A stretch of DNA of 64,000 nt from Ptychomitrium polyphyllum (GCA_973851085.1 OZ316776.1:4588001-4652000), one strand, 5' to 3'. Positions 17,964-56,960 are shown, numbered from the stretch's first letter. Made by a program: numbers and translations. Notes: generated by a model from the sequence alone, not told the origin.

Positions 17964-20900
17964 TTAGTCAAACTGGCTCTCGATGAGACCCCTGGCTTCC
18001 AGTATGTCCATCTCCTCCATGACAGCCATCGATATTCGATTGTCGCCGGTATCCACAGAAAAAGTAAACTTCAAATCAGTCGGAAGTTCGAGCATAGATA
18101 GAAGTAATATCTTCAGATTCGCATGATATTTCACGTGAAGACGCTGTAAAGCGGGCAAGCTGGTCAAACATGACAAATCCTCGAAATCGCACCTATACAA
18201 ATGTAGACGTCTTAAACTTGTCAAACTTGAAATGCCAGTCGGCTCTACCAGCTGCAGTCCTTCGCAATACGATATCTTGAGGAACTGCAAATTGGGCAAG
18301 CTCGCTACACCTGGCGCTGCTCCTGAACTCCACCCCCTTAGTCTGAGTTTGGTCATATTCGTAAGTTTTCGAAGATCAGGAACATCTTCAAACACTTTGA
18401 AATCGACTGTGAGATTTGATAACGCAATCAGTTCATCAAGGCCTGACACTGCCTTGACTGATGTCGAGTGATAATCCCAATAGTTCATCTCAAACTCCTC
18501 ATAATAGCATGATATCTTCAAATTTAATACTCGCAAGCTTGTCAGCTTGCGCATATCAGGCAGCTCAGTAAGACCGAAGCAGCCTTTAGCGCAAAGCTCC
18601 TGCAAAACGACCAAGTCACCCAAACCAGGTAATGCTTTGATCAGTGAGCACCAGGAAATATCCAACGTCTGCAGCCTCCGTAGTTTTTGTAAATTGGGCA
18701 GCTCTTCAAGGCCGTTGCATCCAGCAGTATGAAGCTCCAGCAATGCCACTAGCTCATCCAATCCAGGCACTGTTTTGATCTTGGAGCACACGGAAATGTC
18801 CAATCTCTGCAGTTTCTTCAGCTTTTGTAAATTGGGGAACTCTTCGAGATTGTGGCACCCGCGAGTATCAAGCTCCAGCAACGAGACGAGCTCATCCAAT
18901 CCGGGCAATGCTGTAATCAAGAAGCAAAAAGAAATGTTCAATCTCTGGAGGCTTTGCAGCTTTTGTAAATTGGGAAACTCTTTCAAATTTTTGCACCCGC
19001 TCGCTTTCAGCTCCAGCAAAGCCACCAGTTCGTCCAATCCAGGCAGTGCTTTGATGCATGCGGACTGAGAAATGTCTAATTCTTGCAGGCTCTGCAGCTT
19101 TTGAAAATTCTGTAAACTCTCAAGCATGTAGATGTTATTCATATGAAGTTTCCAGTTGTCCGCACCATAATCCCGCCATCGCTCGACCTCCTGCATCAGG
19201 GATCGTACATCTCCAAACGATTGAAACCCCATCCGATTATCTCCTGTTACAAGTAGGGAAAATTTTCGCAACAAAATTAACCTGCTGAAATCCATCTGCT
19301 GAAAAGTCAATCTGCTGAAATCCGTCTTCTTCCACGGAAGGAATTGCAATTGCAAGACCTGGAGATTTGTCAGGAACCCGATCTCTTGAAGACATAGTGA
19401 GGTGGCCAGCATACGGAACAACCTCAACACAACAAGACGTCCCAGCGATCCGAGTCCAAGAACTCGAACACTTCCAGGACCCCCATGCAAATTAACTTCC
19501 AGATAATTAAGGCACTTCAGTGGACTGAGATCCAGCTCTTTATTCACCAAGGACACACTCCGCAGTGTCAGCATTCTTAGGTTTGAGCAAAGGCTGAAGT
19601 TTAATTCCTCTTTGAATTTACTCCTTTTCCAAAATAATGCCCTTTGGAGATTTTCCCAACCACCACCACAAAAGCGGGACTCTCCTCTACGACGATTTGT
19701 TTGATCATCCCCATCGTTGTCGTAGAACCAAAGCGACGCTTCCTTTTTCCCAACGTTTGCTTCGATAACAGCAAACTCACGCCATAAGTCATGTACAACA
19801 ATCTCTGTACTTCTTTCACCAATGCTCTGTAGCAACGATTTTTCCTTCAAGCCCTTCAACTGCAAATCACAATATTAAATACGATAATGCATGTTAAATC
19901 CAAGTATACCAACACCCACCAAACGACCAATTAGTAAAGCAGGCAACATACTTTTTACGGCCAATCAAGCAGAGATTATTGTCAAATAAGGAAAGTACAG
20001 AAAATGCACAAACCAATAGTGAAGTGCACATAAATTATTACCCGCGTCTTGATATCTTCAACACTTCCTCCGTGAACCATATGAAGCCAGTCCAAAGTTG
20101 TAACAGGCCAACCTCTCGACATATCGGAAGGATCACAAATCTTTCGAGGACAGAAGAGGGCTGCATCCATGAACAAGATCTGATCCTCATTGTTCAATGC
20201 GTCAAAACTCTTTCTCAAGAGAGAGAAGATTGGATGCTCCCTCTCTTGTGGTTGGTTGAGTGTATCCAGTTCCCCCAATTTCCCCTTCCACTGATCCGCA
20301 TCATCCCCAAGTTGCAGACCAAGCACCTCCAATGCCAGAGGGTGGAAATAACAATCATCATCATCATCTTTGCGGAAATAGCACCTCTGTAAACATTGTA
20401 TAAGAACATCCTCATTGACATGATTTGAAGGTGAAGCATGGTAGAGAAGCAAAGCCCTTGCTTCGTTTTCCTTCAACTCGGGCATCTCAATGCAATTACT
20501 TTCATATATAGTATCTCCACTAAATTTTTTGATTTTCATTTTCTCGAGTTGATCAAAAGATCGAGCTGTCACAAGCACTATACTACCCTTGGCATACCCA
20601 AGATCGAGCAAAGCCTCAGCTTGAGCAATGACTTTCGCAGAGTCCGTCACATTATCTATGGCTATAAAAACCCTCTGCCTTAAAAATTTTCGCAGCTTGC
20701 GGTGACACTGCAGTACAGAAAATAATAACAGAAATCAGCGACTCTTGAAGCACCACAAAAACTTTAAACATTTATAATTGGGTGATCCCAGCTAGTTCTA
20801 TTATCTCATGTAATGATATGGACTCTACAATGGCTCATCAACAGATAAATACCTCGTAATCGTTTAATCTTTGAGCATTCTCATTCCCTGCACCTGTTAG

Positions 20901-24300: not shown

Positions 24301-27127
24301 TGTTAGAAGAAGAGTGAACTTCTAAAGATGACTAAGAAGAAGTTATAGAAGAAATTGAGAATTTAAAATTATTCAAGGCTTTAAAAATGCATCTCATTTG
24401 AAGCACATTCTTCTATACATTTGATGATGGTGAATATAATGAAGATTCATTTGTTGTAGGAAAAAGTATGGAGATGGTGGATTTATTGAGCAATGTTATT
24501 TATTGGAATTTCAAGGTGTTCAATGCATTATGTAAATTTAGAAAATATTCAAACTATAAGGAGCTAGCTATGAATGCTCAACTAGTCATTGGAATAGAAT
24601 TTAAAAAGACATTTCAAATAGAGCAAGCTAAAAAGGGAAAAAAGGTCAATAATAAATTAAAGTTATTTACTAAAATTATAGAATAACATATTTTGATATT
24701 TTGATAAGTTAACTTCCATGTTGAAGATTATTTTGTAGCATTTGGTAATGTTTTTTGTAGCACCTAGGAGTGCATAAAGACTTTTTTACACCTTTTCTTG
24801 TTTTCTATAAAAAAAAGATTTATGCCATATTTGAAGAATTTTATGAACTTAATTGGTTAAAATTTCAAATTCTTTTAGAAAAAAAGTAATTTGAAGATAG
24901 ATAAAAAAATAAATTGGCCACCTTTATTGTACCAACTATTGTCTTCTCTTGTTGAATGGTTTGAAAGTGATCTTAAAATGGTAATCCAAGAGTTTGTCCA
25001 TAAAAAAACTCTTTTTCATCAAAATATTATTTTTATAACTTTTTAATATTCTCATGGATTGTCTTATGCTTAAAATATCCATTTTAAAGTAATTTTTTTG
25101 TTTTCTTATCTTTTGTATAAAAAATTGTGTAAAGAAGCCTTTATGCTAATAGTATGCTAATATGCTAATAATATAATAATATACCAATATTAAGGCATTA
25201 AATTGCTAAATAGATATTGGCAATTAGAACAAGCGGATATTTTAAAGTAAAATAGTACTTAATTATTATTAGTTAATTTATCAAAAGCTAGACTAATAAA
25301 AAATACTAAAGATGTTTTTTAATATCTTAAATGGAGGCTTTTTTATTGCTTTCTTTAAGAGAAAGGAATTTCTTTTGTGTAATAAAAAATTGATGCACTT
25401 TTTAAAGTGATCTTATTTATTTCCAAATTATTATTTCAAATAAGAAAACTAGAAGAATTTAATTGTCAAAACTTATCATTGTATGCTTCACTAAATTCTT
25501 ACATTAATTTTCTTAGAACACATGCTTTATTGAAAATTCTATGCATTTATACTACTTTCTAAAATACATATGTTGTATATACAATCATATATGTCTAAAA
25601 TCCTTGTAAATTGCCTTTATGTCTTGTTATATATGCTTAATGTAAGTATACATTTCTCATTTCAATTTTAATATGAATATTGTATTTTTACTTTGTATGG
25701 TGCTATTTAAATTAATATCCTCTATATGCACTTTTTTATATTGCTACCAGCTTGAAATGAAGTACCTTAGGATAGAATCAAGATTTCTAAGGTGAAATCA
25801 TACAAAAAATTCAGTAGTTAATTTAAAATTGTTGCCTTGTATTACTTTCATATCATGCAATGAAGGCATGTGTTTTTTAAAAGCTTTTATTACAAGACCT
25901 TATTAAAAAAATTGAAATTTTACAAGGGTTTAATTTTGTTAACAATTTTATTGGTGCAAAATTAAGTCTATAAGGTTCTCATCTTTTATAATAGCCTAAT
26001 ATAGAATTTGTGATTAGAAGTTTATAATTCATTGTATTGCAATTTAATAACAATTAAGTACATAGATACTCATAAAATTAAAATTCATCATGATTCATAC
26101 TTTTTAATGTGTTTATAAAATGTTTGCATAGTATGTATAGCAATTAATTTTTTTTTTTGTGAAATTTTACTTAATGATCAATTGAATTCTAAATGTATAA
26201 GATTAATATATATTACACAACATATGTATATATTAAAGTGCATTAAACAACTAAAAGTGGTTTATTAATTAGTATTCTCTTTAGGTGCCAAAACATGTGT
26301 TCACTTGCAATATTAGGCCAATTTAAATCTCAACATTCAAAAGTTACATTAAACACCAATTTAATTTGTTGAGCATCCTACCAAACCTTTACATTATATT
26401 ACATTATAGTCTAACAATTAGCAGTTTGTTTCAAGAATGATGGCAAATCAAGAACTTAGGTGTGCCAAAGAATTATAAGAATGTGGATACTTTATCTATA
26501 ACCTTCATTCTTTTGCTAGAATTTCAATTGGCTAATGGATGATGCATACAATTTGTTAAATTCACAAGCTTCATTGTCTCACCAAAATCAATGCATTAAT
26601 TAATTAGTAATAGAATATATGATAGAATAAGATGGTAGAACAAGATGGATGTAGAGGAGAGTTGGATGACATGGCACTTGTAAGAAATCTCGTATTGTTT
26701 GGTTGTTATTGAATAAATTCCAATACAAGTAAACTAGATGTTGCAAGAGATATGATGTGGTGATGCATGGATGATCAGCAAACTTTTTGGAGTTGTGACG
26801 CATCAATCAACTAATAAGAACTATCATACACGTGACTGATTCCCTACAGTGGGAGAGTCAGGACCAAATTCCTCGCTGAGTTCCCAATGACTTGACATCA
26901 TAGAACCTGATGTCAGATTCAAATCCTACAACAGAGCTAGGCATGAATGAAAAATTGTTCACCGCGGCAAGTTTACAACTGTTAAAGAAGTAAAGAGTAC
27001 ACTAACACTGGGTACAACACCGTTGGTTATAATCCTTGACAGTCGGGAACTAGCTACATGTTTAAACATCCCCGTCCGCCATTTGTGATCGTTGTCACAC
27101 TTAGCTTGATACTTCCTGACTAAAAGC

Positions 27128-29482
27128 TCAAGGCTCCTGGTCAGGCAATTTGCCAACATCGAACAACGTGTGAGCCAGAAAGATGTTTCTGTTCAAGAGC
27201 CGAGGAACCACTAACCAGTCCCTGACAATGTCGACAACTTTACAACCCGTATGCAAAATTCTCCCTATTTTGTATGACTGAGTCGTGATAAAATTAGTCC
27301 TCTCGTGGCGCTCACGTTGGAACGCCAGAAGAGCCTGGTGTATCCTTTCATGCTCTGGCACCACCGTCGATGTCTCTTGGTCTTCAGTGTTGGGAATACT
27401 CCTCAGTGCGCCATACAGCTTCTGGGTGAGGATGAGTGCGTCTTCCAAGGCCATGCATCCGCCTTGCCCCATGTTGGGAGTGGTGGGGTGAGCAGCATCT
27501 CCTGCCACTGTGACGCCGCCATCAACCAGTGAATCTGGGTTGGGGTTTACCCTGTGACGGATTGTGGTTTTGGAGAATCCCTCCGGGGGAGAGTTAGTAA
27601 TGATGAAGGACAAAGGGGTTGATGGGAACAATTTTGAGACTAGTAGCAAAGCTTCTTCCTTCATCTGCTCTTCAGTCGTGTTCCGCCAACCTGTAGGAAC
27701 AACATCTCAGAGTTTTCACAGAACTCACAAACGGAACAGCAAAGAAGAGCTACGCATCCTCACCTTGGGACGAAGCATTCCAGACTATGTTCCAAGACAC
27801 TTTGGTGTGGCTTGTGGGAAAATAAGCAGTGCGATATCCTTGTCCCAAGAATATCTGGGCTTTGTCTTCGTACTTGTGACCCTCTGGAAGGACTGCTATA
27901 CCTTGGATCCCAACTAGTCCTACAGGTTGTGCTTTCTGGAGCCCAATCCAAGATCCTACGCAAGAGCTTATACCATCGAACCCGATAACAACCTGTGGAG
28001 TTAATAGGAAAGGTACAGATGTTAAATTAGTTGCCACCCAATCTGCTATTATTATGATTCATCTATCTGGAGTACAGCCATGGAATTAATAAGATGGACC
28101 TCCTGGGATCCTGCAAGTGGACAAACCTTAGCAGTGTAGGTTGAGCCATCATGGAGCTCAACTTCAAAGATGCCTGGTCTGCTTTCTGGTTTTTTGATAT
28201 CAATCACACGTGACTTGAACCGGATTGTACCTTCGGGTAACTCCTCAGCAAGAACTTCAAGAAGAACCTTCCGTTCCACAGCCCGAAAATTATGTGGTCT
28301 GTTTCAGGAAATGCTTCACCTATTTGGACTTCATATTCCTAGAGATGACTCTAGTGTTGTCTATAACATCTAAAGTACAATTTTCCATTTTGATCCGTGG
28401 CATTTGCTAAACGCATAAAAGTATAGAAATACTACTTCACCAAAAGAAATCATATAACGCATACCTTAATGACATATAAAATGATGATGTAGTAACACCC
28501 AGCATACAGAGATCCATTCTATGATGACGTTCTTGCTACCGAGATAAGGAGCAAGGACCCAAACAAGTACACGCAAACAAGAGACGATGTTTGTTTCGAG
28601 CTGTTTCCTTCGCTGTCTCTAGTGTTCTAAGGAGTAGCAAAGCAGGTAAGAAGACTTTACCCTTCATCACAATCAGCAAGTTCCACTTTTCCCAAGCTTT
28701 TTCCGTGTGCGCTCAATATTTCGAGTCTGCATGTCACGAAGAAAGTTGCAACTGTCTAAGTAGAGATTTTTTAATTTTTTTTTGAAACAGTAGGGGTAGC
28801 TTTACCGCCGTGATAGGATCCCATTAAGCAAGGTGGAAATTTCACGGCGAGGAAGTCTAGTTAGAGATTGACAGATTGACAGATCCTACCGTTCCCGAAA
28901 GTTTCAATATTCCAGTTGACAAAACGTGGACGATGCACCGAGCAATATGATCAACTCCACACTCTGCAGTGCAAAAGAATGAGAATCAGGAACAGTGTAT
29001 TGCGTACGCGGCAAGGTTTGTGAACATGGACCGAAACTGCTCCCCAATTCCTAGAACATCGAGCACGCTGAATGCATTGTTCCAGAGAGCTAGGGCAGAA
29101 CCCCCGGCTCTCAGGGTGTCTGACTGCTCCAGGACGACAGCCTTGATCCCAACTCTACACAAGAAAGAACAGCACCAACTCTGTCAGATACAATACTATA
29201 ATCATTCAAGAATCCCCATGCAGGGTTTAAACTTTCTCACATAATCAAAAGCACGATATGCCAGAATAGCTTTGATTGTCAATGATATGTTCAGCTGTTG
29301 CTATATCGCAAAGGCCAAACTCAAATATTCAAACCACCTATATACGATGCTTTTAGGTCTAGTATTCTTGCAACAATGTACTTGTGAAGAGCGAGGGCGC
29401 AAGCAAGCCCGCCAACTCCGCCACCAGCAATTATGATTTCCTCCTCTTGCTGTAGACCCTTTCGGCTTCCATTCTCATCCAT
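27128..29482 (-). CDS. FAD-dependent monooxygenase (plant MO2/MO3-like, FAD_binding_3 family)
   Basis: Exons 29482-29382, 29154-29008, 28726-28661, 28298-28127, 27992-27764, 27690-27128, in phase. Motifs IIIAGGGVGGLACA (GxGxxG), VIGFDGISS (DG) and VAGDAAHPTTPNMGQGGCMALED (GD). Confidence 0.92.
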
Positions 29483-33399: not shown

Positions 33400-33958
33400 T
33401 CACAAGCGTTTGGGGCCATTGAGGATTGGAATGTCTGTGAAGTCGGCGTAATTGTAAATCAAATAGACGTAACCACCGCCAAAGATTGCGAGTAAGGTAA
33501 GAAGAACGGCAAACCAAAGAGTGCCGCCAAAAGACTTCCCCAAAGCTTTCTGTATCTCATCCACAGTGTCGTTGAATTTCGACTCATTGCTTCCAGCATC
33601 TGCATCCGCGACAAAAAATTGTTGAGCAAAAGATTGGAAAAACAGCACAATGCAGTGTCGAATTCTAGGGTTCGTACTAACCTCTCTTTGTCACCTCGTC
33701 ATCATCTCCCGGCGCGCCACCAGCTCCCCTGCGAACGCTGGACAACCTCGGAGCTCGTCTGCCAAACGCCGGCACAATTGCAAAGCCTAAGCAGCCTTGT
33801 CCCAATCCTACTTGCTGCCTTCGCACATTCCTTGAGCGAGAAACTGACGGCACGACCTCCGCTTTCGGATGGCTCACACAGCACTTGATTCGAGAATCGC
33901 ATTGAGACGAGAACACCCCACCAGATGCCCTTCCTATAAAACCCGTCAGTGACGCCAT
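33400..33958 (-). CDS. Small (~158 aa) putative plastid-targeted protein with a single C-terminal transmembrane helix; function unknown
   Basis: Exons 33958-33682 and 33599-33400 with a phase-1 GT-AG intron. MASL start followed by a Ser/Arg-rich, acid-poor transit-peptide-like N-terminus, an acidic linker and the hydrophobic helix LWFAVLLTLLAIFGGGYVYLIY. Confidence 0.75.
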
Positions 33959-34372: not shown

Positions 34373-36755
34373 ATGGGTCTTCGAGGTTGTCCCCTGGTTC
34401 GATCTTGGTCGAATTCTTTCGTAGGAAAAGCGGAACTATGTGAGTTAGAGAGAAAGAATGTGGCGCAATTGTACAGGCTAATGACTTTCAAACGTTGTGG
34501 AGCCCTTTGTGCGATCACTTCTTGGGGGAGTTTTAAGGACAGAGTTTCACAGAATTTCCAAGGGTTTCCAAGCGGGTTGTTGTCTTTGGAGAGTGGCTTT
34601 TTAAATTGTAAGAGAGGGGCCAGGGAGGGTTACTTGATTTCTCATCGCAGTCGTGGATATGGGTTCACTAGCACTACCGTGTCCGCATCCAGGGACGCCG
34701 ATGAGGGTGGGGAATTGCCTCGCGAAACACACACGAAGGCAGCATCGTCGGAGTCTAAGTATTCTCGTTTGTTGGTCGAGCGCACGGTGTCTTCCTGCGA
34801 AACCATTCGGTACCCTGGAAACGTCATTGTAAGAACCATTCACCTCCCTTCTCGTTTGATTTTTTCATTGATTAGGTAGTTGCTATTGCTAATCAAACTT
34901 GCAGAGGCTCGCTGGAGTTCCATTGCATTGAGTGATTGCCAGGAAATCGCTAGATCAACTCTTTTATAGATTTTGATGAGACTGAAATTGCCAGGTTTCC
35001 ATGTGGTGTGTTTCTCCAGGTTTTTGGGGATGTGGAAGAGGGAGGAACCATCTTGGCAGACGGAGACATCATTGTACTAGGGCGGCTCCAAGGAGATGTC
35101 CACGGTGGTCAGAATGGAGACTGGGACGCTACTGTGTATGCTGGGGAGTTGGATGGTTGTCACATTCGTATTGCTGAAGCAGATGCCTTAGGCTCTAAAT
35201 CGCAAATTCTTGGCTGTCCTGTGATTGTCCATGTACAGAAAGACGGCACGTTGGGGTATGTAATTTCTTGACCCTAATCTTCAGTACTCTCCGAATTGCG
35301 CTCATCTGCCACTACCACCAGTGACACGGTAGTCAGGCCTTATGTCGAAGGACGGAAGGCGCATTTGCAATTTCTGCACTTGATAATCGCCAAAGCAGAC
35401 GTTGAGTATGTTGGAAAGTCGTAAGTGGTCACTTTTTTCACTTACTGTATTCAAGGGTTCCGATTGCCGCCTGACACTGTGTAGTATTCGTGTATCATTC
35501 GGTGATGTGGGCACTCGCCGAGGAAGCCTTCATCAAGAGTCCAATGATAACGAGGAAGCAAACACTTCGAGCGGTTTGCACTATGCAGCAGCGACAGGAT
35601 CTGCGAAGAATTCCAAGGGTTCCGAGAGCAAAGATCAGTCGTTTTCAAAACGGCCAGCTCAGCTGGCATTGTTCACTGGCGTATACATTAGTTTATTTGG
35701 CATGACATTGCTGGTCTTTCCAACATCTCTTTTTGGTGAGACTCAACTCCTTGCAGATTTCTCTTAGTCACAAAATTTGTAGAGTGACTAGCTCAACACG
35801 GAGGTATGTTTCATGTTGAGAGTACTGAAAGATCATATACTCACACGTGGAAGCAAGTGCGTAAATGGTTTTGATGTAGGAGTTTTATTTGACGTGCGGA
35901 GCGTTACTGTGGGATGGATACGAGTGGGAGCCATCCTCGCAGTGGTAATCGCTTGTTTTGAATTACAATATTCTTAGTCTCATAAATGCAGGTTTGAGAT
36001 AGACAAGCTTTCAGATTAATGATATTGACAACGTCATTAGACCTCTAATATAATGAAATCGGCTAATTATTTCTTTCGGAAGAGATGTGCTCTGTAAATA
36101 GCTCCTGCAAATACCTACATACTCTGTACTATTTAGAAATGTGATAAATTGAGTGGTGAGACTAAGAACGAGCTACAAATCTGCAGGTATTTGGAGTGTA
36201 CTACATTGGAACGGCTGTCGGTGACATGCGGGGAATCTCTGCCGCGCGGGCATTCTACATGTCCACCGTTGTGGGCCGCGTGGTAAACATTGGATGTCAT
36301 CTCTGCTGCCTATGACATCCTGAACCTCAAACCCTGCACTTTTCTAACATTCCGAAATTTAATTGACAGACTTCAAGTTGAAGGCAAATTTTGCAGCACT
36401 TCGACATAGAGTACATTTTGATGTAGTGACACAATTTTTGATGTTCCAGGATGTCAATGTCTAACAATACGCTTCATTGTATGCAGTTTCTGTTCATCGG
36501 CTTCTGCTGGCTTGTGGCTACTGGTGCTGCTCAACGTTCTCTTCTTCTGGTACCTTATCTTGCTGACATTGTAGGATTGATGAAATTCTGTTGTTTCTCG
36601 ATTAGAATTGTTTCGCCTCTATGTTGAATATCTTAGGTAGGATGTCCGACGACTTCTCATTTCCTGTGCAGGTTGGAATCGTGAACATGTTAGGGGCCAT
36701 GTCCATGCTGGTTGCCTTGCGTCAAGATTCCAAATCAAGAGTTCTCAAGACTTGA
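34373..36755 (+). CDS. minC: MinC-like septum site-determining protein (MinC C-terminal beta-helix domain) fused to a four-TM membrane domain, ~416 aa, probably plastid-targeted
   Basis: Exons 34373(or 34481)-34828, 35020-35255, 35485-35735, 35880-35944, 36187-36282, 36487-36549, 36672-36755, all GT-AG and in phase. The spliced segment LLVERTVSSCETIRYPGNVIVFGDVEEGGTILADGDIIVLGRLQGDVHGGQNGDWDATVYAGELDGCHIRIAE follows the MinC_C pattern. Four hydrophobic segments follow. Confidence 0.8.
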
Positions 36756-37590
36756 ATAGCAAATATTCAGCAGCGACATGCCACTTCCGCATTCATGCCA
36801 TTTTATTCGTTTCAAAACACTGTTTAATGAGGCCAACAGATAACGAATGGAGAGTACCGCTAGCAAGACCATCAACTTTTTCAGTTCTCCCATCTCTTAA
36901 GGTGCGAATGTACATAGTCTTGCCATATTGTACAACTCGAACTGGATAGAGATCTTTTCAGATGGGATCAAGGAGTAGCTGCTATCAGGACTTACAAAAT
37001 TCCAAACAAGTACTTTCAACCCTCGATGCCATGGTACTTGATGGAAGGACATTAAAAAGTCATAGTACATAACATTGACAGGTCGACTACATGCACAAGA
37101 GCTGCATGGATTTCAAGCGCAGCCTGTGACATGGAAACTGTACATCATTGCAGATAAATTCAATACATTTGAGACCAAGAACATATCCTTCACATCCTAC
37201 ACAATCTCCTACACTAGGAAAACACAAAGCTCGATGGAGTACTATAGCGTCAACACTATTTCCAGAAAAATTGCAATTAAGTTGCAATACTAATACAGTT
37301 AATTTCATTATCAAAATTTACTGGAGGCTCCAAAACTCTTGACATTTTGAAGAAATCAACATAGAAAGATGTATGATAAGGGACACCGCCAATTCTCTAT
37401 GAGCCCATTAAAATCCAGCCATATCGAGTATAAGTGACAACACTCAGCTCCTCAACATGATCTTGCTTCCAGAGTCGGAAAGACCAAGCACCACTAAACT
37501 GAAAATGTTCGTTAAAACTCTGCAATAAGAACTGCCCCTGCTCATATTCACGTCCTCATAGCCAATGCACTAAATTTTATCATGGAAGCA

Positions 37591-38808
37591 TCAACCCCTG
37601 CCGCCCATCAACCCTTGCAGAAAACCTCGTTTCGGTGGGGCTTCCTCAATCATAACTGCTTTCATGCTGTCCTTCTCCACTAACCTCCAGGCCATCTGCT
37701 CCAGTGCCAGGCCTGCCAGCGTTGGCGGGTTCTTGAGCACCAATGGGTAGCCGCGATTGGTACTTTTGATCACTTCGGAATCCTCGGGGATAACCCCCAA
37801 CAAAGGCAAGCCAAGCATTTCCTGCACATCAAGCACCGACATCATGTCCTCGCCCTTGATCATATCGCTCCGCACTCTGTTCACCACCATCTTGATGTCC
37901 CTGATTCCGTCGCACTCGAGAAGGCCCGTGACTCGATCGGCATCGCGCAAACTTGTAATGTCGGGTGTGGTGACAAGAATCGCCTCCTGTGCGGGAGTAA
38001 TCGCGGTGATGAACCCAGCATCGATACCCGCAGGGCAATCGATCAGAATGAAATGCGGTTGCCCCTCGGGCCGTTTCTTCAGCGCATCCACGAGCCACGT
38101 AAGAGCCTTCCCCCCAAATCCAAGTGGCATTTTGTACCGAGGTTTGTTAATACACAGAAGCTCGAAATTCGTCCACCGTTTATCGCGTATCAGAGCCTGA
38201 TCGAGCCGGCACTCGCCGTTGAGAACCTCCATAGCGGTGTAGTTCACCCGATTCTCAAGACCCAGCAGTAAATCAAGATTCCGAAGCCCCACATCTGCGT
38301 CGATAGCCACCACTTTGAAATTCAACCGTGCGAGACACATTCCCAGGTTGGCAGTGGTGGTCGTCTTCCCCACCCCTCCCTTCCCTGAGGTGACCACCAC
38401 CACGCGTGGCACCTCTCCCACGAGCTCCGGTTTCCTGTTCCACTGCAACATCGCCTGCGGCACAGGAGCTCCTCGGCATCGCCTCCCGCGCCTCACTCCT
38501 GATTCTCGCGACCATAATCTCAAACTCTCCAAACCCTCTCCAACAATATGCCCCAACCTGCCCTGGGCAACTGCAAATTCCCCATGACTGGCACCATATC
38601 CCTCACACCCTAGCCCAGCCATCGCGCGTCGCCCGTCCCCGTTCCCATTCCGCACTGAGCTCACCAAACTCACATGCGCTCTGGAAACCCCCGAACATGA
38701 CGCCACCGACACTCCTACACTTACCGACCATCCCTCCACGCCATTGCTGTAGCTGTAACACCCCTGCTGCAATGCAGCTGACGGCCCAGGCCACGCCCCA
38801 AACCCCAT
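37591..38808 (-). CDS. minD: Plastid division ATPase MinD (ARC11 homologue), intronless, with transit peptide
   Basis: 405-aa ORF with deviant Walker A GKGGVGKTT, DADVGLRNLDLLLGLENRV, switch II ILIDCPAGI and a C-terminal amphipathic membrane-targeting sequence KRGFLQGLMGG. It has a long transit-peptide-like N-terminal extension. Confidence 0.97.
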   Translation of the reverse strand: MGFGAWPGPSAALQQGCYSYSNGVEGWSVSVGVSVASCSGVSRAHVSLVSSVRNGNGDGRRAMAGLGCEGYGASHGEFAVAQGRLGHIVGEGLESLRLWSRESGVRRGRRCRGAPVPQAMLQWNRKPELVGEVPRVVVVTSGKGGVGKTTTTANLGMCLARLNFKVVAIDADVGLRNLDLLLGLENRVNYTAMEVLNGECRLDQALIRDKRWTNFELLCINKPRYKMPLGFGGKALTWLVDALKKRPEGQPHFILIDCPAGIDAGFITAITPAQEAILVTTPDITSLRDADRVTGLLECDGIRDIKMVVNRVRSDMIKGEDMMSVLDVQEMLGLPLLGVIPEDSEVIKSTNRGYPLVLKNPPTLAGLALEQMAWRLVEKDSMKAVMIEEAPPKRGFLQGLMGGRG

Positions 38809-39916
38809 CGTTCCCCGAATTCTCTCTCTCTCTCGCTCTCAACGTGAACCTCATCTCCACCCCGCCATCGGTCGTCTGGCGCTGCGCAGCAAATCGAACA
38901 ACATGCGTTCTACAGTCCACTGCAACTGCAAACCAAGACTTCGACCTCTCTCGCGGTAAGAATATTTGCTCACTATCTCACGAATTCCTTGTCCAACTCT
39001 GCAAATCTGTGAAAGTTTTAGGGTTTTCCAGACACAGCGAGTTTGTCTGTTCATTGTGTATCATCCTCATTCGCCTGAGTGCGAAGATTTTTGCTTGAGA
39101 ATCTTCACATAGCGTTGATTTGAACGATGGGATGATGTTGATCTTGTGGCCCTTCTAATTGTGTCCTCTTTGAATTATTCAGGCCAGTTTTAATGGAGAT
39201 AATTTGTGCTGAACTTAAAGATTGTAGCGAATTGGATTTGTAGCTCTATTTGTGTGGGCACTGGTTAATAGTTTGCGGATCAGTGTACTACATGGTGATC
39301 GAGCTTCAGTTATGAGACGCAATTCTTAGCGTCTGTGTGACTTGAGTAAGAATTACAAAACCTTTCTGTAGGAAAACTCCGCTTGATATCTGGGGATACT
39401 ATTCTGTGGGAATTAAGTGGTCCGTATGTACAAAGTGCCAACCACGCATAACGGTTGTACGTAGATATCGACAGAAGGTTTGCTTGGATAAGGAGGAATT
39501 TGATGTTGACCCTTCTCAATGGAACAAAAATCTGCCGAGTGCAAATTCGGGAGATAAGGTGAATATAAACCTACAAGTTGAGTTACTGTACATGTTTCCA
39601 AGCTGGACTCCAAAAGATACCCGCCAAGAGCGTCATCGCTATGAAGACTATATATTAAGCCACGTTTGTCAGAAGTGATCGACTATCAGTATGGGAATCT
39701 AAACGAAACAGACACTGAACGACAACGTTTAAGTTACATAACCACGTAGAAGATGGGAGATACAAGATAGTCACACAGTAGCATTAAAGATATTCAGACG
39801 TAGGTCAAAAACATGATACCCAGGACCACATTCGACAATCGGGGAATTCCAGAGCACAATGTGCCCATCTCATTACTACATGCTAAATGAAAGAACAAAT
39901 CGGTAAATCTAAGATG

Positions 39917-42900
39917 CTACCTACCAGGATTGTTAGTCCAATAGACATTACTGCTTGGACCAGGAGCAATCATGCCCGGACGAATAGCGCCAGGCTGCAG
40001 ATAAACAGGTTGTGGAGGATTACTGTAGCAAGGGATTCCAGTGACTATACTAGGACCATTAACTGGCCATTGACCAACAGGTCCCCTACCATCTATACCT
40101 GGATGCACAGAACCTTGCATTTGCCCCTGTCCTTGTGACTGTTGCATTTGCCCCTGACCCTGTGATTGTTTCATTTGCCCCTGACCTTGTGATTGTTGCA
40201 TTTGCATTTGATTACCTTGAGAATTTCTAGAATACTGGCCTGGTGGTATGAACACTCCAGTCCCAACAGGCTGCGGTGGAGGTGCATACATACTCATTTG
40301 CTGAGGGAGAGGATACGAAGCCATGGGTACCAAGTTAACTCTTGCTTGATACATACCTTCTGGATGTTGGTAATCACCTGCACGAGTAGTCACATTTTCC
40401 GTTAAGAATTATAATAGCACAACTCATGTGTTGCAGACGGGATCACAGCATCAACTAGGAACCAGGCACATTAATGTGGAATAAAACGGTACCGTATCTA
40501 ACAGGTACACACATCATGCTAGATACAAAGCATATCAATCAAGCTAGAGGAAAGCATCCACCTCCGAATGGCAGACGCGGACTAGAATCCGAACCTGTTG
40601 CTTGATGAGACCATCGCACGTTAGAACCTAGATATGGAGCAGGTTGAACTTGGTGAACATCCCCATGGAGAGCTCCACTAGAGGGTCCCCAGTGTGGAGG
40701 ACCTACAGACCTTTGTGGAGATAGATGTGGTGGCTGCTGCTGAATAGGTCTTAAACCAGAAACAAAATCGTGGTGCGGAGACTGATAGGGCAAAGATTGA
40801 TGTTCATTGTAGTTGATCATAGGAGATCTTAGATCAGGAACCTGGGCATAAGTGATGTCAGAGCGAGATCTATTCCAAGAGTTTTGCCTATCTGGAGAAG
40901 GGTGAAACTGTCCTCTATGATGTTCACCACCAAGAGAATAACTTCTAGATAACACCGGCGATCCCATAGAGTTACTCCTCTGATGTCCTCTTCCAGCTGC
41001 ACGTGCCTTGATTGTGTCGTCAGCTTCAAGCTGCAACCCAAATTCACACATTTCACACTTGATAATTTTTACACCATGGTTAAATGCTTTTTACAAATGA
41101 TCGAGTTCACAAGTGATGTTTCTCAGAGATGATCAAATTCACAAAACGGCTTCTTCCAAACTTTTATCTACCCAAGCAAACAAGTTCGTGTTACACAATC
41201 CTTTCAACTTTATGCACGATTCGTCCAGGTCGTCATCTCGACAAGATAAACAAAAAAGATCACACTCTTCCTGCTCACCTTCTCAACGACTATCCATTTT
41301 TGGAGCATCCAAAGTGTGAGATTATGTTAGGCGTGCATACTGTGCTGAGAAATGTTCTTGATAAGATCAAAATGACCACTCCGACTCTTGAAAAGTGAAA
41401 AACGTCCCAGCAAATTTGCATTGCAGTTATCATAATGGATGCTTACCATGTTGAAAGAGTCGCTCCTTGAAAATCTACCTCTGCCACCACCTCTACCCCT
41501 GCCACCATTACGTCCCCCGGCTTTGTACCGACCACCGCCACCTCGGCCCCCGCCCCTCCCGACATCACCGCCTACTCCGACTTGATATCCCTGCTTAGCA
41601 GCTTGCTTCCTCAACCTTTTCGCTTCCTCCTCCTTCTCATCATCGGAAAATTCCTCTTCATCTGATATTTCCTCATCATGCTGCCCTGAGGCGTCATACC
41701 CTTTCTTCCTCAACTCTGAATCATTCAGAACAAAATTCGCGAACTCTTGTACGAATCCCACAGTAACGCCTTGCGAAGCTACATCTGGAACATCGGCCGC
41801 TTTGTTGTATCGGATGACGTAAAAGGGCTTTTTGACGGGTCCAAATACTTCGTCTACTACTCCTAAGGGTTTCCGATGCTCTGTCAGCCACAGGATTGAG
41901 CCTTCGTTCAGTACCATCTCGTGTTCAACTGCTTCCACAATGATTTTTTTGTCCATGATCTGTAGATGAAAATGCAGAGTGTGAGAGAACCTTCTCAACG
42001 AGTGCACTACAAGCAGGATCTCAAATGACGAAGCCAGCTTCACTACTTCCTTGTTCAAAACTCTAAAATCTCAACACACACTAGTGGTCAGCCTCCGATC
42101 TAACCTTTAGATGTAAAGAAGCCTTGAAAGAATACATTTCTTATCGGTACTACGGTCGATCTTATCGTGCTGAACCATCAACCGTTCATACGTCCACGTA
42201 TCAGATTGCTTATTCTCGCTTGTTCACTACTTATCGTGCAAATGGAACAAGAACTAGACGGTTGAAGAGCTCAAGAACCCTTAACGAACTTTAAGATCAA
42301 TGCTGTAGTCCCACTCAGGATCGAATCACAAAAAGACTGCACCATTGCAAATAATTCTTCCGGCCCTAATCTAGCCCTCCATCTTACTCTCCAGCGCCCC
42401 AAACTCCTAAAAACATCACATTTTTTACAGATGCAGCACGCCTACCTGCGCATCCTGGGTGACAGCGTATTATGCAATAGAACGACTTACTTTAGAGACA
42501 ACACCGACTTCATGTGGTACTTGATTAGGCTCCAAGACTGCTTCAATTTCCGGCACTGGAGGCAAGTCCTGCATCTCAGAGTCATTCACCACTAAAAGTC
42601 TCAGATCACGTCCCAGATCTCATGAATCAAGATTCAAACCCTCTAGGTAACCAATGCAGATTACCCAAGAAGCCTGCGAAAACCGCTTCTCCAAACCCAG
42701 ACACCAAACAAGAATCAGTTAAGCTCACCGTGACTTCATTCGCAGTGCGGGGAGGCTCAGTCGCACCGTCTTCCTCATCACTATCTACGTCCTTCGCCCG
42801 CTGAACCATCTTCTCCAACTCCTCAGCACCCTCAATATGGCTCTTCTCCATATCACCCGCATTCACGTCCTCGTCCTCCTCACTCGACTCGTCCGACGAG

Positions 42901-43292
42901 TCCTCACCACTCTCTACAAGCGGGTCACTATCCGCCTCCACCATCCCCTCCACGTCGTCCTCCTCTCCCTCACTTTCCTCCTCCTCGCCCTCACATTCCA
43001 CCTTCACTCCATTGCCATTCCTACTCACTGGCAACGCCGCCTCCGCAGCAAGAAGCACATCCTGCGGTATTTCCACCTTCGCATCCCCTGCCACCCTGTC
43101 ATGTTGCCTGATCTGCACATTCGCCGCTCCATCACTCTCCTTGCTGCATGCACTGTCTTCCACCGCCCTCCTCCCATTGCGCCCCGATCCCGCATCACTC
43201 AACGCCGGCATTTCCATATCCGACCCGTCCGACACTATCTCCCCGGCCTCCACCTCTATCCCCGATCCCCCTCTCCCTCCCCCCACCATCAT
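39917..43292 (-). CDS. NAF1: H/ACA ribonucleoprotein assembly factor NAF1 (Gar1/Naf1 domain)
   Basis: Exons 43292-42729, 42568-42491, 41959-41447, 41030-40562, 40377-39917, in phase. Acidic N-terminus, PRTANEV-DLPPVPEI, LNEGSILW...PLGVVDEVFGPVKKPFYVIRY and KGYDASGQHDEEISDEEEFSDDEKE, then an RGG box and a Pro/Gln-rich tail. The start codon and last donor site are less certain. Confidence 0.88.
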
Positions 43293-43438
43293 CGCCTCTC
43301 TCACGCCCTCACCACTCCTCTTTACTTCTCTTTACCAAAATCTCTAACCTTACCAACCTCAACAACCAGTCTCCTCTCCTACCAACCTCCACAACCCCTG
43401 CACTTGTGTGCTACGCACTTCCGACACCTTCGAAGCTC

Positions 43439-47078: not shown

Positions 47079-50000
47079 TTACCGGCACTCCTTCAATAGA
47101 TACATGGATGGGCTGAACTGCTCTAGGCCACCCCCACCAATCATATGGGTGTCATCCGCTCCCACATTTAAACCTACTGTGGATGCTCCACGAAGAGGAG
47201 TTTTTGTGATGCCATGCTCAGGAGAGGGCTGCAACAACCACATTCAAACAGTTAACGTCAGATCATTGATAACAGGTCACGTCAGGGCATAAAAAACAAG
47301 TCACGTCGCCTCGTTGAAAAGTCCACATCAGCAAAGTACAACACTAAAAACAAATAAATGGAATTTTCATTCGTGTGCAGCTCCAGATCTTACCAGAAGC
47401 CAATTCACAAAAGTTGGTCCTCCACCATCGTTCTCCGTCAGGCTCCTCCGATTCTCCTTCATATCATTGGCTATCCGACTTGAGATAGGCCGCAACCGAT
47501 ATCCAGAAAGTGGAGAAGGCATAGGCTGACCAGAAGACTGCTTGGCCAGCACTTCTTCTGCTTCAATATAGGCAGGGGTGTTGTGTTCATTATTGTGCCG
47601 CATTATGCCTAGAGCATCATCCACTCCATCTTCCAGAGGAATTTCCAAGCCCTGATTAGGATAATCCACTCAACAATCAATTTGAATGCTCGGAACATAG
47701 AAGAAGAAGGTTCGTTTAATAAATTTCTGAAAACCATTTCAATAAAAGTTGAATGATCCAAATGGCAGAGATATATAACTCACATCCATAAAAGACAGCG
47801 CTCCCTCCTTCTGAGCAGAATTAAATGGATCCAACCTAAATGGCGACCTCCAGATTGGAGATGTAAATCTAGGCGATGTAAATCTAGGTGACGCAAATCT
47901 GCAATCAAGCACGTTTCCACAGATGTTAGTGACGATAGGGCCGCTAAAAAGCAAAAGTATTGCAACATGAGCAAAGGACTCCCAGATGACGATGTCACAA
48001 ACCAACGTTCATGGGCCAAAAAATCTAGTACTGTAACACAGGTGAACCTGTGAGCTGTGCAACCAGTTCTGCGAGAAAACAAATACTCAAAAGGACAGTA
48101 AGACATGACCCACGGCTTAAAATGTCGGTAGAGAGAGCTCAAAATATACACTCACATGTTAGTGTCAAAATCTTGCAGCCAATCTTTTCCAGGTGTCTGA
48201 TGGAGAACTGTCACACCCGGGCTGAAACATGCAGCCATTGCACATGTTACAGATCCCCACGCACTGAACGTCGCTGCATTCCCAGGAGACATCAGTTCCC
48301 TTCTCTCTAAAGCTTTTGCGACCACGGGAGTACCGACAATCTCTCCTGAACCCACAGTGCTGCCCTCGCATAAGCCTTTTATTTCCCCAGATCCATGTTT
48401 ACCTACAACCAAAGAACCCGCATGATAATCTGAGTCATTGTGTAACGAGCTAGCGTCAACTGAAGAACGCGGCTGCTCTTGTCCACTCTGTCGATTTTGC
48501 CAATCCTGTCGATTATGTAGTTGCTCCATGAGTACAGAACCCTCCTGCTAAATCAGTGGTACCAACAAACTGTCAGTACCAGTTAAACATCACCACATGA
48601 AGTAGTGGCAGAAAAATTATGAATACATGATAGTAAAATCCCGCCAAAAACCAAGGCAAATAACACACAGTAACCGAGACCCGAAAAACCAAGCAACCCG
48701 CTTGCATAATTATATCGGATTCACACACTACCCACTCTCAATACTAACCTTTGATGCTTGTGTCCCATTCTCCCGCCTACACCCAGTGCTGCACTCATGG
48801 TTCGACCCATGGGATCTGCCCCTCTTGTTCAGTTTACCACCCGCAGCCTCCCGTGGTGCAGTCCCACACGCAGCTCCTTGTCTCCCATCTCGGGCAGAGA
48901 AAGGAGTGCTACCGCCCTCTCCACTATCACCTTTGCTATCCGTCGTGCATTCCTCATACTGCTTCTCTGTGTTCTGTCGTCCATCGCTCCGCGCAGCGTC
49001 TGCATCACCCCTGTTCCCAAACTTGCTTGCTGGGGACACGAACAATGCAGTCCTCGCTTGACACCCTTGCTGCAACCCTCCTGCCTTCGATGCTTTCTCA
49101 GCTGCATCCGCCTCGGAACCTCCTTCGGCTGTCTTCGAACTACCACCTGCGCCACCACCTGACGCACCCGCATTTCCTGCGCTGCTCACCACTTCCTTGA
49201 ACTTCGCGTCCAGCTTCTCCCCGGTGCTCCCTATCTTCGATGGGATTACCAGCTGCCGTGGCCTCTTCCGTAATATCGAAGGCGATCCGCTGAAGCTCCT
49301 CGCTGCACTCCGCAACTTCGACTGCGGGCTCTTGCCTTGGAAGGGTGACTGCAGGTACGTAGGTGGTGTGATGCAGTTTCCAGAGGGCATTATCATCTGC
49401 CGAACACCCAGCGGACTGTATGCCTGGAGTGAGCTCACCAGATCGTAACTCATGAACGGCGAATCCAGGATTCGCGGCGGCTCGTAGAACAGCCCGTCGC
49501 CACGTTCCAGAACTCCGCTTCCGTCCGCTCTGTCCTCCAGGTCTTCCTCCGTCAGCATGGGCGACCCCAATTGGAACTCGTTCACCGCCTCGTTGCCATC
49601 CCGGTACTCAGGATGGAGGGCGCCTCGGTACTCCGCCACCTCCTGCTCCATGGCCTCCTCCTGCTGCGACCCACAGGGGACGTTGGCTCCAGAGTCCTCG
49701 CCGGTAGGCTCCGCCTGGCCGGCCTGACTATAACCGCACTCTCTCATGGCCTCCAGGTTATGCTGCATCGATCCCATCATCGCCAGAGTCTCCCCACCTC
49801 CGCACACCCCTCGTCCGTTGAAAGAACCCATTGCCTGCGTGTTGCTCAGCGGCGCCATCGACATGTGGCTTGACGCGAAGAACGAACCCAGGTTCGGCAC
49901 TGGAACTGACATTGCCGAGCTCGGATATGCTTGCGAGCTCGACTCGGGCGCCGGGCACACCAGAGGGAACGAGCTCGAAAATGACGGAAGTCTCGTCAGC

Positions 50001-52352
50001 TCTATGTTCGACAGAGTTCTCGACTTCTGAATTGTCGACAGGAGCTGATCCTGGATGTTGTTCGACTGCGCCGAGGTACCCAGCGGAGGCACTCCCAAAA
50101 ACCCGCCGGGGTACCCTTGAGCTTGCCCGGAAGACCACCCCGAGAACCCCCGTGACTGCCCGCTCACGGCGCTCTCAGACTCCTTCTTCGGTTGCAGACG
50201 GCTCCCACTTCTCTGTTCATGAGGGGGGGCTGAGCCGTCCGATTTGGAGTCGGTGGACTGCTCCCGGCTAGCGTGAACCCCGTACTGGGACGTGCGGGCC
50301 ATGCCATGAGCGTTCGAGTGCTGCCTGCTTGGGCCCGAAGATGTCGTCGCCTCGCTCACGGGTGTCCCAGCCCTTCCCCCGTTACTGGCACTCTCGAATT
50401 GCCCGCTGGCCGACCCGGAGTTCATAGCCTCCTGCTGCGCTTGATAAGCGGCCAGCGCTTTCGAGATTGGATCGTTCGCAGTCAAAGGGTCCACCTTCTT
50501 CTTCATGGTGCTGTTCCAATGATTCTTAATCGAGTTGTCCGTGCTGCAGAAATCCCGATTCAGCGAAAAATCGGTACTTTAGAACACGCGCGAGAACCCG
50601 TCGTATAAACTCCTGAACTGGACCGAAGCGCATGAGAAAAGCATGCTGACTGTAATGACATGAAAGGTGATTGCCCTTACCGGCCAGGCAGGGATTTGGC
50701 GATTTCGGCCCACTTGTTGCCATGTAACTGATGGGCTTGGATCAATGCTAAATCCTCCTCCTGCGTCCAAGCTTCCCGCTTTATGCTGGGGTTAAGATGA
50801 TTATGCCATCTGCTCCAACCAATATGCAGCGGATCAGTTCTAAAACTTTTCAAACGACCCTTCAATGGCATTTCGACGTAAAACATGTAAAAGCAACGCA
50901 GGTGCTCTAGCGCGCACCTCTCTCGACATTGCTTGCCAATTCTTCCAGGAAGATTCTGTGCAATCACAGACCACTTCTTGGCTCCATACTTGCTTACAAG
51001 CTCCATAATGCGGTCATCTTCCTCTTTGGTCCACGCACCCTTGACCAAGTCGGGGTTCAGGACCTTCTGCCATCTATGCAAGCACTGCACATCTGTTCGG
51101 TCCGTGAAAAACTCCGCTGCAATTGCACACACCAGTTTTACCATTTTATGTCCCACCAGAATGGGTTCTAGCTAGAACTAGAATCACCCAAAGAGCTGGA
51201 ACATGCAAATTGTCCGCAGTCATGAAAATCCACAACCAATAACTTACCAATTTTCTTCCAATTCTTCCCATTGAAGCACTGTACAGCTCGCCTCAAAGTC
51301 TCGTCCTGGTCAGAACACACTAAAAGAATTGAGAAAGCAGTTTGTGGATCTCAGTGATCATCTTGAAATCATCAACTTCGACAAGACGATGGAAAATTCA
51401 GGACCGCACGTTTCAGAGAGGAAGCTACGGGATCAACCCCGAATTAAAGCACTAAATTTGCTACGGGAGATAAGGCTCCCGCTTGCCGTGAATGCGTGCA
51501 TACCTCTTCTGGAGTCCACCCTCCTTTGGAAGATCGTCGAGTTGGACCACCTGTTCGTCTGACAGTTGAAAAACACTTATAGGTCAGGGTCCAGGTCGCG
51601 TCTGTAACGAGCTTGACGGTTAACAATTTCTTATTCATTTTCACCCGCAATTATAATTCCGTTGACCACAATACAGACTATTAAAAGAATTTTATAAGCT
51701 ACGAAACATTAACGTCAGTTCGTTGAGCTCGACTGTGAATCGCAAACAACGAAGAAATTTGTAATCAAACCATATAATAAGCTAAAATTTATATGGCCGA
51801 AGTAACAACGTGGGCGCAACTCCCAAGGCCATCGAACGAGGAATTCCAGGCCAAAATTCGAAATTGCTTCTCATTTTCGGAACGGCATCATGATCAACTA
51901 TTTCCCACGGCTACTCATAGTATGAATGTGAGCAATGAAAATGATTCGTAAACCACATGAATTCCAAATCAACACAAGCCGTTAAAGATTGATGTAGGGC
52001 CGGATATGAGGCTGTATAGTGTAATACTCGGACGCACATACTCCGTAACAGAAGACTCACAAAATCGTACGTAAGGCCTTGAATCCTTCCCATTTTGATC
52101 ATTCCTGATAATGTCGTGAGGCAGGATGGTGCGGATTGAGGATAACTTGACAACGCAATAGCGCAAAGTGAAAAAAAATTATCAGCACTAAAAGGTCTAA
52201 GTTCGGGCGTGTGCGTATAGGTACCCGTGCACAGGAGGAAGGTTGTGCGAGGTGTCCTCATCTGATTCCGGGGCAGATGAGCACGCAGACGACCGCTGCT
52301 GCACATTCTCATTGCTGCAACAGCTCCTTCCCTTCCCAATCAAGCTCGCCAT
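47079..52352 (-). CDS. MYB3R: R1R2R3-MYB (MYB3R) transcription factor, copy B (inverted paralogue of copy A)
   Basis: Same exon structure as copy A. Exon 1 is 52352-52225, exon 2 starts at 51558, the large exon carries the 592-aa ORF 50506-48728, and the last exon ends ...SPSMYLLKECR* at 47079. The reading frame appears intact. Confidence 0.95.
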
Positions 52353-56900: not shown

Positions 56901-56960
56901 AGACCTAAACCTAAAGATAAAAATTTGCTTACAGTATAATAAAGAAATAGTAGCTGCACG
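53950..56960. repeat. Tandem satellite/minisatellite array, ~94-bp monomer, about 30 copies
   Basis: ACATCAAAGTTGTGATGGTTCCATGTGATGGCTGCACATATTAGTTGAGACTTCA... recurs at 54689, 54783, 54877, 54970 and 55064 (spacing 93-94). The core (~54700-56500) is homogeneous and the edges are degenerate. Confidence 0.92.

Follow-up and report, generated by a model that had tools for sequence, protein, structure and literature searches.

Introduction

In Escherichia coli, MinC's N-terminal domain inhibits FtsZ by itself, and the C-terminal domain binds the FtsZ C-terminal peptide and is active largely only together with MinD (PMC6803595; this and the other papers given by accession are cited for the passages that deal with these proteins). 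MinC tethered to the membrane by an anchor of its own, as in the engineered fusions ZipA-MinC and MTS-MinC, blocks division without MinD, and MinD strengthens the effect (PMC6803595). The RSGQ motif mediates MinD binding (PMC6803595, PMC5548801), and the motif and MinD are proposed to form the FtsZ-peptide site together (PMC6803595). Here we describe a MinC-like gene at positions 34373 to 36758 of a 64,000-nucleotide stretch of the moss Ptychomitrium polyphyllum (GCA_973851085.1 OZ316776.1:4588001-4652000; the whole stretch is called the window), whose predicted product joins MinC's C-terminal domain to a four-helix membrane domain.

In plants, MinC is described as lost, with ARC3 in its place (PMC13650779, a 2026 review); its loss or absence is also stated in PMC8227023, and Arabidopsis is entered as lacking MinC in Table 1 of PMC4641359. 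ARC3 is a negative regulator of the Z ring that acts with MinD1 and MinE1 (PMC13650779, PMC5855766), and in this proposed place in the pathway it resembles MinC. The exceptions named in PMC5855766 are only some algae and Physcomitrium patens. The P. patens MinC-like sequence is mentioned in PMC2995336, citing Yang et al. 2008; MinC-like sequences of the moss genome or of some algae also appear in PMC5855766, PMC10030945 and PMC8646090, those of Cyanophora in PMC4015805, and Chlamydomonas XP_001692722 is listed as MinC in Table 1 of PMC4641359. An earlier reading of the locus from its sequence alone (the sequence-only reading) had stated that MinC-like sequences were noted in some algae and bryophytes, and these reviews do mention algae and a moss. 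PMC3494859 and PMC12462475 contribute nothing on this gene.

The sequences noted there very probably belong to the same gene family as the gene described here, and we assume that XP_024395735.1 is the P. patens sequence meant by Yang et al. 2008. The passages that mention them give no domain architecture, no liverwort or fern copies and no linkage to MinD. In the literature searched, which lies mostly outside subscription papers, we found no account of the four-helix domain, of copies in liverworts or ferns, of the linkage to MinD, or of the missing N-domain and the loss of the RSGQ arginine in land plants. That the family exists is known already; within this literature, its architecture, its range, the erosion of its motif and its genomic pairing with MinD seem not to have been described. 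The present analysis extends the MinC-like records to liverworts, ferns and streptophyte algae, with an architecture that differs from that of bacterial MinC, and shifts the question from whether a moss keeps MinC instead of ARC3 to what a membrane protein carrying half of MinC does.

A moss gene fusing MinC_C to a four-helix domain

Conceptual splicing of the window DNA yields a nuclear gene of seven exons on the plus strand that encodes 417 amino acids with no internal stop codon, and all six introns are GT-AG and 122-242 bp long, as expected of the seven-exon gene that had been proposed. Exon 1 (34373..34828) encodes an unconserved N-terminal extension of about 133 residues and the initial strands of the MinC C-terminal domain (MinC_C), with SSCE at the RSGQ position, and exon 2 (35020..35255) encodes the core of the C-terminal beta-helix. 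Exon 3 (35485..35735) provides a polar linker, predicted membrane helix 1 and the beginning of a short helix. The rest of the membrane domain is divided among exon 4 (35880..35944; a loop and the first half of helix 2), exon 5 (36187..36282; the end of helix 2, a basic loop and the start of helix 3), exon 6 (36487..36549; helix 3 and a short loop) and exon 7 (36672..36758; helix 4, a basic tail and the stop codon).

The gene model was compared with relatives. Alignment to the Ceratodon protein spans residues 1-416 at 62% identity; the two starts are identical, and the exon 1 part is 41% identical. The six intron positions are those of the four genomic loci checked from a Sphagnum-type lineage, a set of metagenome loci; the three of their MinD sequences that were placed in a tree group with named Sphagnum MinDs (support 99). 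The phase-2 junction of exon 3 is common to the window and these loci. The Sphagnum-type contig L003 is a spliced form of the locus and joins exon 2 in frame to exons 3-7.

A HMMER search with exon 2 matched 461 proteins; among the 150 representatives listed, the membrane domain is complete in 10 (E 7e-29 or better), partial in two more and faint in another. Holders of the fusion include Physcomitrium, Calypogeia, Cymbomonas, Pycnococcus, Pyramimonas (a transcriptome record), Mesostigma and Myrmecia. When the membrane region served as query, eight of 1738 candidates matched, all eight with MinC_C, and this added Ceratodon, Marchantia polymorpha, M. paleacea, Adiantum and Ceratopteris; Closterium has a partial model that belongs to the family. 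No seed plant record was present among these 1738 candidates, a search that also missed known algal homologues. By sequence, the range of the fusion is from prasinophytes to ferns, including Myrmecia, Mesostigma, mosses and liverworts, and the databases label these proteins 'MinC C-terminal domain-containing'. The joining of the two domains proposed in the sequence-only reading thus recurs in independent annotations across green plants. Judged from these sequences, the fusion is real and ancient, and its occurrence in green algae makes it much older than the mosses.

Alternative splicing was also seen in the family. The out-of-frame acceptor of L003 lies within exon 2 (~1640-1645) and that of the spliced contig L002 within exon 3 (~640-650); these acceptors disrupt the reading frame, either within the MinC domain or immediately behind it, and could reflect regulation or splicing noise. 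In Physcomitrium, one annotated isoform (P0153) uses a different first exon. For the window gene, an alternative donor at 35260 with a possible extra exon at 35285-35420 was rejected because the intron would be shorter than 30 bp, and the homologue alignment favours 35255/35485.

The retained and missing parts of MinC

Exon 2 alone matched PF03775 (MinC_C) at 54.4 bits (E 1.4e-14), above the cut-off of 33.2 bits, and all 12 homologues scanned also exceed this cut-off. Structure models were available for relatives and not for the window protein itself. In the AlphaFold model of the Physcomitrium orthologue, the beta-helix occupies residues 84-185, and the N-terminus and linker are disordered; the predicted local distance difference test score (pLDDT) is mostly ~85-97 for the beta-helix and the helices and below 50 for residues 1-80. 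This model superposes on the six best chains of solved MinC with a root-mean-square deviation (rmsd) of 1.3-1.7 A over ~100-110 columns (1.5-1.7 A for 4V02, 5XDM and 6RIQ). Both profile and structure therefore agree with the MinC assignment of the sequence-only reading, and the likeness to bacterial MinC (PF03775; PDB 4V02, 5XDM, 6RIQ, 1HF2) is that of the C-terminal beta-helix domain.

In contrast to bacterial MinC, the moss protein lacks the FtsZ-inhibiting N-terminal domain and adds a four-helix domain and an N-terminal extension. Exon 1 gave no Pfam match to the MinC N-terminal domain at E<=1, and no MinC_N family was found by Pfam in the 12 homologues. A hidden Markov model based on 22 N-regions from the closest bacterial group scored at most 2.8 bits on the 20 green rows and -1.7 on the window protein, so the remark that no MinC N-terminal domain is recognisable was borne out by both approaches. 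The whole-protein model TIGR01222 (cut-off 95.25) was passed by one of six full-length green homologues (Pycnococcus, 97.1), and Physcomitrium and Ceratodon scored 67 and 72.6. Exon 2 was also the query of a word-index search for longer proteins, and none turned up in the 66 candidates. The ARC3-type FtsZ-like domain and MORN repeats had no Pfam match in the four window exons or the 12 homologues scanned; ARC3, a stromal protein with FtsZ-like and MORN regions, has no domain in common with the MinC-like protein.

The RSGQ motif was eroded in most land-plant copies, a further difference from bacterial MinC. The comparison set omits 16 of the 150 search matches (green fusions or their fragments); 132 of its rows were aligned, 124 of them with the full motif. 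The arginine is kept in 120 of these 124 rows, in six of seven algal-type rows (an eighth is truncated) and in one of 12 land-plant rows. This single land-plant row is Sphagnum-type (RAGE); the other 11 lack the arginine.

The membrane domain

The Kyte-Doolittle index exceeds 1.6 in four stretches of the product (~aa 289-319, 322-346, 361-382 and 385-406), and the four hydrophobic segments quoted in the sequence-only reading were all found in the 417-residue protein. The orthologue model has four long helices and one short helix here, with a mean pLDDT of 86 for the membrane part alone. The window protein is therefore a predicted membrane protein, unlike the soluble bacterial MinC.

The membrane domain is more conserved than MinC_C. 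Identities for the two domains are 92 versus 72% with Ceratodon, 84 versus 56% with Physcomitrium and 45-55 versus 34-48% with algae. In comparisons of distant mosses, the nonsynonymous rate (dN) of the membrane domain lies at 0.14-0.17 and that of MinC_C at 0.39-0.56, with synonymous rates (dS) of 1.3-1.75, near saturation. Both domains are under purifying selection, with dN/dS well below 1. Across 10 rows, 24 columns of the membrane domain are invariant, and many of the invariant residues are small or aromatic. The mean net charges along the segments of the domain are +1.3, +0.8, +1.2, +0.3 and +1.2, a pattern that weakly fits a predicted topology with both termini inside.

We also searched for the source of this domain. 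In the ESM Atlas, the look-alikes are stand-alone bacterial proteins of 118-149 aa with scores of 0.91, 0.90 and 0.89 (203-209 of 256 features shared), and an algal query scored 0.89 and 0.86; these are feature-level scores that carry no alignment or E-value. PF26941 (DUF8292) is annotated on 10-20% of the members of two of the Atlas clusters. The likeness to these unnamed bacterial membrane proteins, some of them PF26941 members, is thus one of features, given by Atlas scores alone. Profile searches with 10 rows reached best E values of 0.028 (Pfam), 0.18 (NCBIfam) and 0.036 (PHROG); there was no PDB sequence match, and Foldseek gave no match at E<=0.001. Genome scans of GTDB with two single-protein queries, whose reach is close relatives, found no relative in 120 and 205 candidate stretches; plasmid tblastn with two algal queries gave no matches, and a degenerate DNA pattern of the domain was found in no viral contig. 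The bacterial origin suggested in the sequence-only reading is accordingly left with the Atlas likeness (0.86-0.91) as a lead, but no alignment-based match accompanies it. Two candidates were dismissed: the best VIA-align match (Z 9.9, rmsd 4.3, 9% identity), which is generic for helical bundles, and a plasmid tblastn match (E 0.3) that had a profile score of -0.5 bits and stops in frame.

Ancestry of the MinC domain

A quick MinC_C tree was built from 152 of 154 rows over 101 columns. The 20 green rows and three unnamed rows, which we read as fragments of the same family, form one group (support 93). Within it, four moss rows form a clade (support 99), and XP_024395735.1 of P. patens is orthologous to the window protein. 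The green rows lie together with a bacterial group of 24 rows on the same side of a branch with a support of 96. All 24 bacterial rows score best on NF001778 (217-347 bits), compared with at most 147 bits for 10 other rows. These 24 rows have no taxon labels, and from their pattern we take them to be putatively cyanobacterial; the NF001778 model has below-cut-off matches in six of 14 control genomes, Synechococcus included. The earlier statement that the domain is closest to cyanobacterial MinC therefore holds as a grouping with one bacterial MinC clade, which is putatively cyanobacterial.

A MinD gene beside the MinC-like gene

An intronless plastid-type MinD gene lies at 37591..38808 on the minus strand and encodes 405 aa from the first ATG. 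It scores 315 bits on TIGR01968 (minD_bact; cut-off 213 bits). This gene, absent from the sequence-only reading, is tail-to-tail with the MinC-like gene, and the two stop codons are 832 bp apart. For both proteins the nearest named relatives are Ceratodon and Physcomitrium. Consecutive locus tags mark the orthologues in the two Ceratodon assemblies (M758_2G131800/131900 and KC19_2G152000/152100), on chromosomes of equal length. Convergent MinD was also found in five of nine metagenome loci with a MinC alignment, 602-616 bp apart in the four measured; the other four loci comprise two spliced contigs, one locus that is too short and one that breaks off near the position of the MinD stop. Being near-copies of each other (dS <=0.1 among the three compared), the five were counted as one lineage. 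MinC-MinD adjacency is thus present in three moss lineages.

The MinC gene of Physcomitrium and its two MinD genes are on separate chromosomes. In a quick MinD tree, the window MinD groups with the MinC-linked MinD of Ceratodon (Shimodaira-Hasegawa-like approximate likelihood ratio test, SH-aLRT, 98), and both Physcomitrium MinDs group with the unlinked copy on Ceratodon chromosome 6 (support 94), which suggests that Physcomitrium may have lost the MinC-linked paralogue. The helix-7 region of the window MinD is conserved in an alignment to Aquifex MinD; this says little, because MinE shares the site.

A third gene, here called gene X, belongs to the same block. It lies on the minus strand (33400..33958, in two exons, 33958-33682 and 33599-33400), head-to-head with the MinC-like gene with start codons 415 bp apart, and encodes a 158-aa protein whose start resembles a transit peptide and which has a single hydrophobic helix close to its end. 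Gene X is also upstream of MinC in five Sphagnum-type genomic loci and in L003. No Pfam or NCBIfam family was found for it; its C-terminal part has a weak likeness to PsaH, a photosystem I subunit (E 0.3). The next gene past MinD in the window encodes a Gar1/Naf1 RNA-binding protein (~39900-43330, minus strand; PF04410) and has no match in the Sphagnum-type flanks, which carry frames that look like pentatricopeptide repeat (PPR) genes by eye beyond MinD.

With about 30,000 genes in the genome, the chance of adjacency is roughly 1e-4 for one given pair and roughly 1% for any pair of division genes. That the pair has persisted may reflect nothing more than common microsynteny among mosses. We rejected a remnant of the bacterial min operon as an explanation, since the two genes point towards each other, six introns interrupt the MinC gene, and the transfer of MinD to the nucleus was late in several lineages (PMC10030945).

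Possible role of the protein

The reading that we prefer, and to which we give about an even chance, is that the protein is a membrane-fixed accessory of the Min system at the plastid inner envelope, ancestrally docking MinD, rather than a complete FtsZ inhibitor. The exon 1 extension is likely a transit peptide and linker, by which the protein would be imported; in the 14 proteins compared, the N-terminal extensions have 41-143 aa and aspartate plus glutamate make up 2-10% of the first 60 residues. The four helices would place both termini on one side, and basic residues before helix 1, in the loop between helices 2 and 3 and in the tail suggest that this is the stromal side, where the MinC_C dimer would stand at the membrane beside FtsZ. 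Given what is described for E. coli, a MinC C-terminal domain with its own anchor would reach the membrane without MinD, but its activity would still depend on MinD. Where the arginine is kept, as in algae and Sphagnum-type mosses, the protein would bind MinD and compete with MinE, and jointly with MinD it would hold the FtsZ C-terminal tail, which may weaken the anchoring or bundling of the ring. In its simplest form, the model has the protein as a stationary dock for MinD on the inner envelope's stromal face, dampening Z-ring anchoring; the order found in bacteria, where MinC is brought to the membrane by MinD, would then be reversed. In the present moss, other Bryopsida, liverworts and ferns, the contact with MinD is probably weakened or remodelled because the arginine is gone, and copies without it, including that of the window, may act as minor modulators.

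Several observations weigh against this reading. The first 60 residues of the window protein are rich in arginine and lysine, with 13% serine plus threonine and 7% aspartate plus glutamate, and this N-terminus is poorer in serine and threonine than those of most homologues. The window protein has lost both the RSGQ arginine and the glycine, the latter kept in 122 of the 124 comparison rows. The topology is weakly supported because the loop between helices 1 and 2 is also net positive. Across mosses, constraint on the membrane domain is roughly threefold that on MinC_C, beyond what a mere anchor would need. L002 and L003 have one out-of-frame junction each. Records of Physcomitrium, Calypogeia and Adiantum have no MinC-MinD adjacency, and the adjacency elsewhere may be plain microsynteny because a third, unrelated-looking gene is also in the block.

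The strong constraint on the membrane domain raises the alternative that this domain has the main function, as a small plastid membrane protein, for example in envelope, peptidoglycan or thylakoid biogenesis, and that MinC_C is mainly a dimerisation module without a part in division. We consider this main rival possible, if rather unlikely. At each depth compared, the membrane domain shows higher conservation than MinC_C, with a dN about one-third as high and many invariant small or aromatic residues; MinC_N is absent, 11 of the 12 land-plant rows have an eroded RSGQ, and the Atlas look-alikes of 118-149 aa stand alone in bacteria. However, the MinD-binding arginine is kept in algal and Sphagnum-type copies, MinC_C is present in every full-length homologue found in the membrane-region search (8/8), and MinD is adjacent in mosses.

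A further alternative, which we regard as improbable, is a self-anchored FtsZ inhibitor that is independent of MinD and does the work of ARC3 where ARC3 is missing; this was the direction of the sequence-only reading and has been suggested in a review for P. patens. Membrane tethering of E. coli MinC does block division without MinD (PMC6803595), and the MinD-binding arginine would be expected to be lost once recruitment was unneeded. However, the tethering work as described used MinC fusions and not MinC-C alone, and ZipA-MinC and MTS-MinC are laboratory constructs, whereas the natural protein consists of MinC_C alone with a conserved four-helix domain. MinC-C alone acts only with MinD, and the moss protein has neither the N-domain nor RSGQ. 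Copies are also present in liverworts, ferns and chlorophytes, which according to PMC10030945 generally possess ARC3. The proposal of a self-recruiting MinC inhibitor is weakened by the absent N-domain, the MinD dependence of the C-domain in E. coli and the erosion of RSGQ to SSCE, and a self-anchored inhibitor replacing ARC3 is doubtful.

Targeting to mitochondria or another compartment is very improbable. In some other eukaryotes, MinC-like proteins probably go to mitochondria or another compartment, and the arginine- and lysine-rich first 60 residues with 13% serine plus threonine would fit such targeting. Against this, the records come only from green plants, the domain lies with the NF001778-type bacterial group on one side of the branch with support 96, and both neighbouring genes look plastid-targeted. 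An artefact, with MinC and membrane exons from two genes or a decaying pseudogene, is hardly credible: the out-of-frame junctions of L002 and L003 and the unusual Gly-to-Cys change in the motif would fit it, but the frame is intact with canonical introns, the full fusion occurs in independent annotations and a transcriptome record, L003 joins exon 2 in frame to exons 3-7, and dN/dS is below 1.

For the history of the envelope-fixed accessory, we tentatively suggest a scenario that is itself more speculative. At the base of Viridiplantae, MinC may have shed its FtsZ-severing half and fused to a four-helix protein of bacterial type, giving an inverted module in which an envelope-fixed MinC docks MinD. 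The module would persist beside ARC3 in liverworts and ferns, its MinD motif would have eroded stepwise in land plants, and the nuclear minC-minD pair of mosses would have been rebuilt after gene transfer. If true, the convergent pair in Sphagnum-type mosses and Bryopsida would be a rare case of two endosymbiont-derived partners becoming neighbours in the nucleus.

Other features of the window

The MinC-MinD block is flanked by an inverted duplication, 8315-11174 (+) and 48730-51589 (-), of 2860 bp and 99.2% identity. It contains a MYB-repeat gene that looks 3R-MYB-like by eye; the duplicates are ~37.5 kb apart and represent either a recent duplication or an assembly feature. An NLR-like resistance gene lies at 17964-20734 (-), where leucine-rich repeat families are above cut-off in a 636-aa frame; its upstream frame is NB-ARC-like by eye and had no Pfam match. 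Exons of a monooxygenase dependent on flavin adenine dinucleotide (PF01494) are present at ~27100-28300 (-). A degenerate tandem repeat array of ~3 kb, with copies ~70% alike, occupies ~53950-56960.

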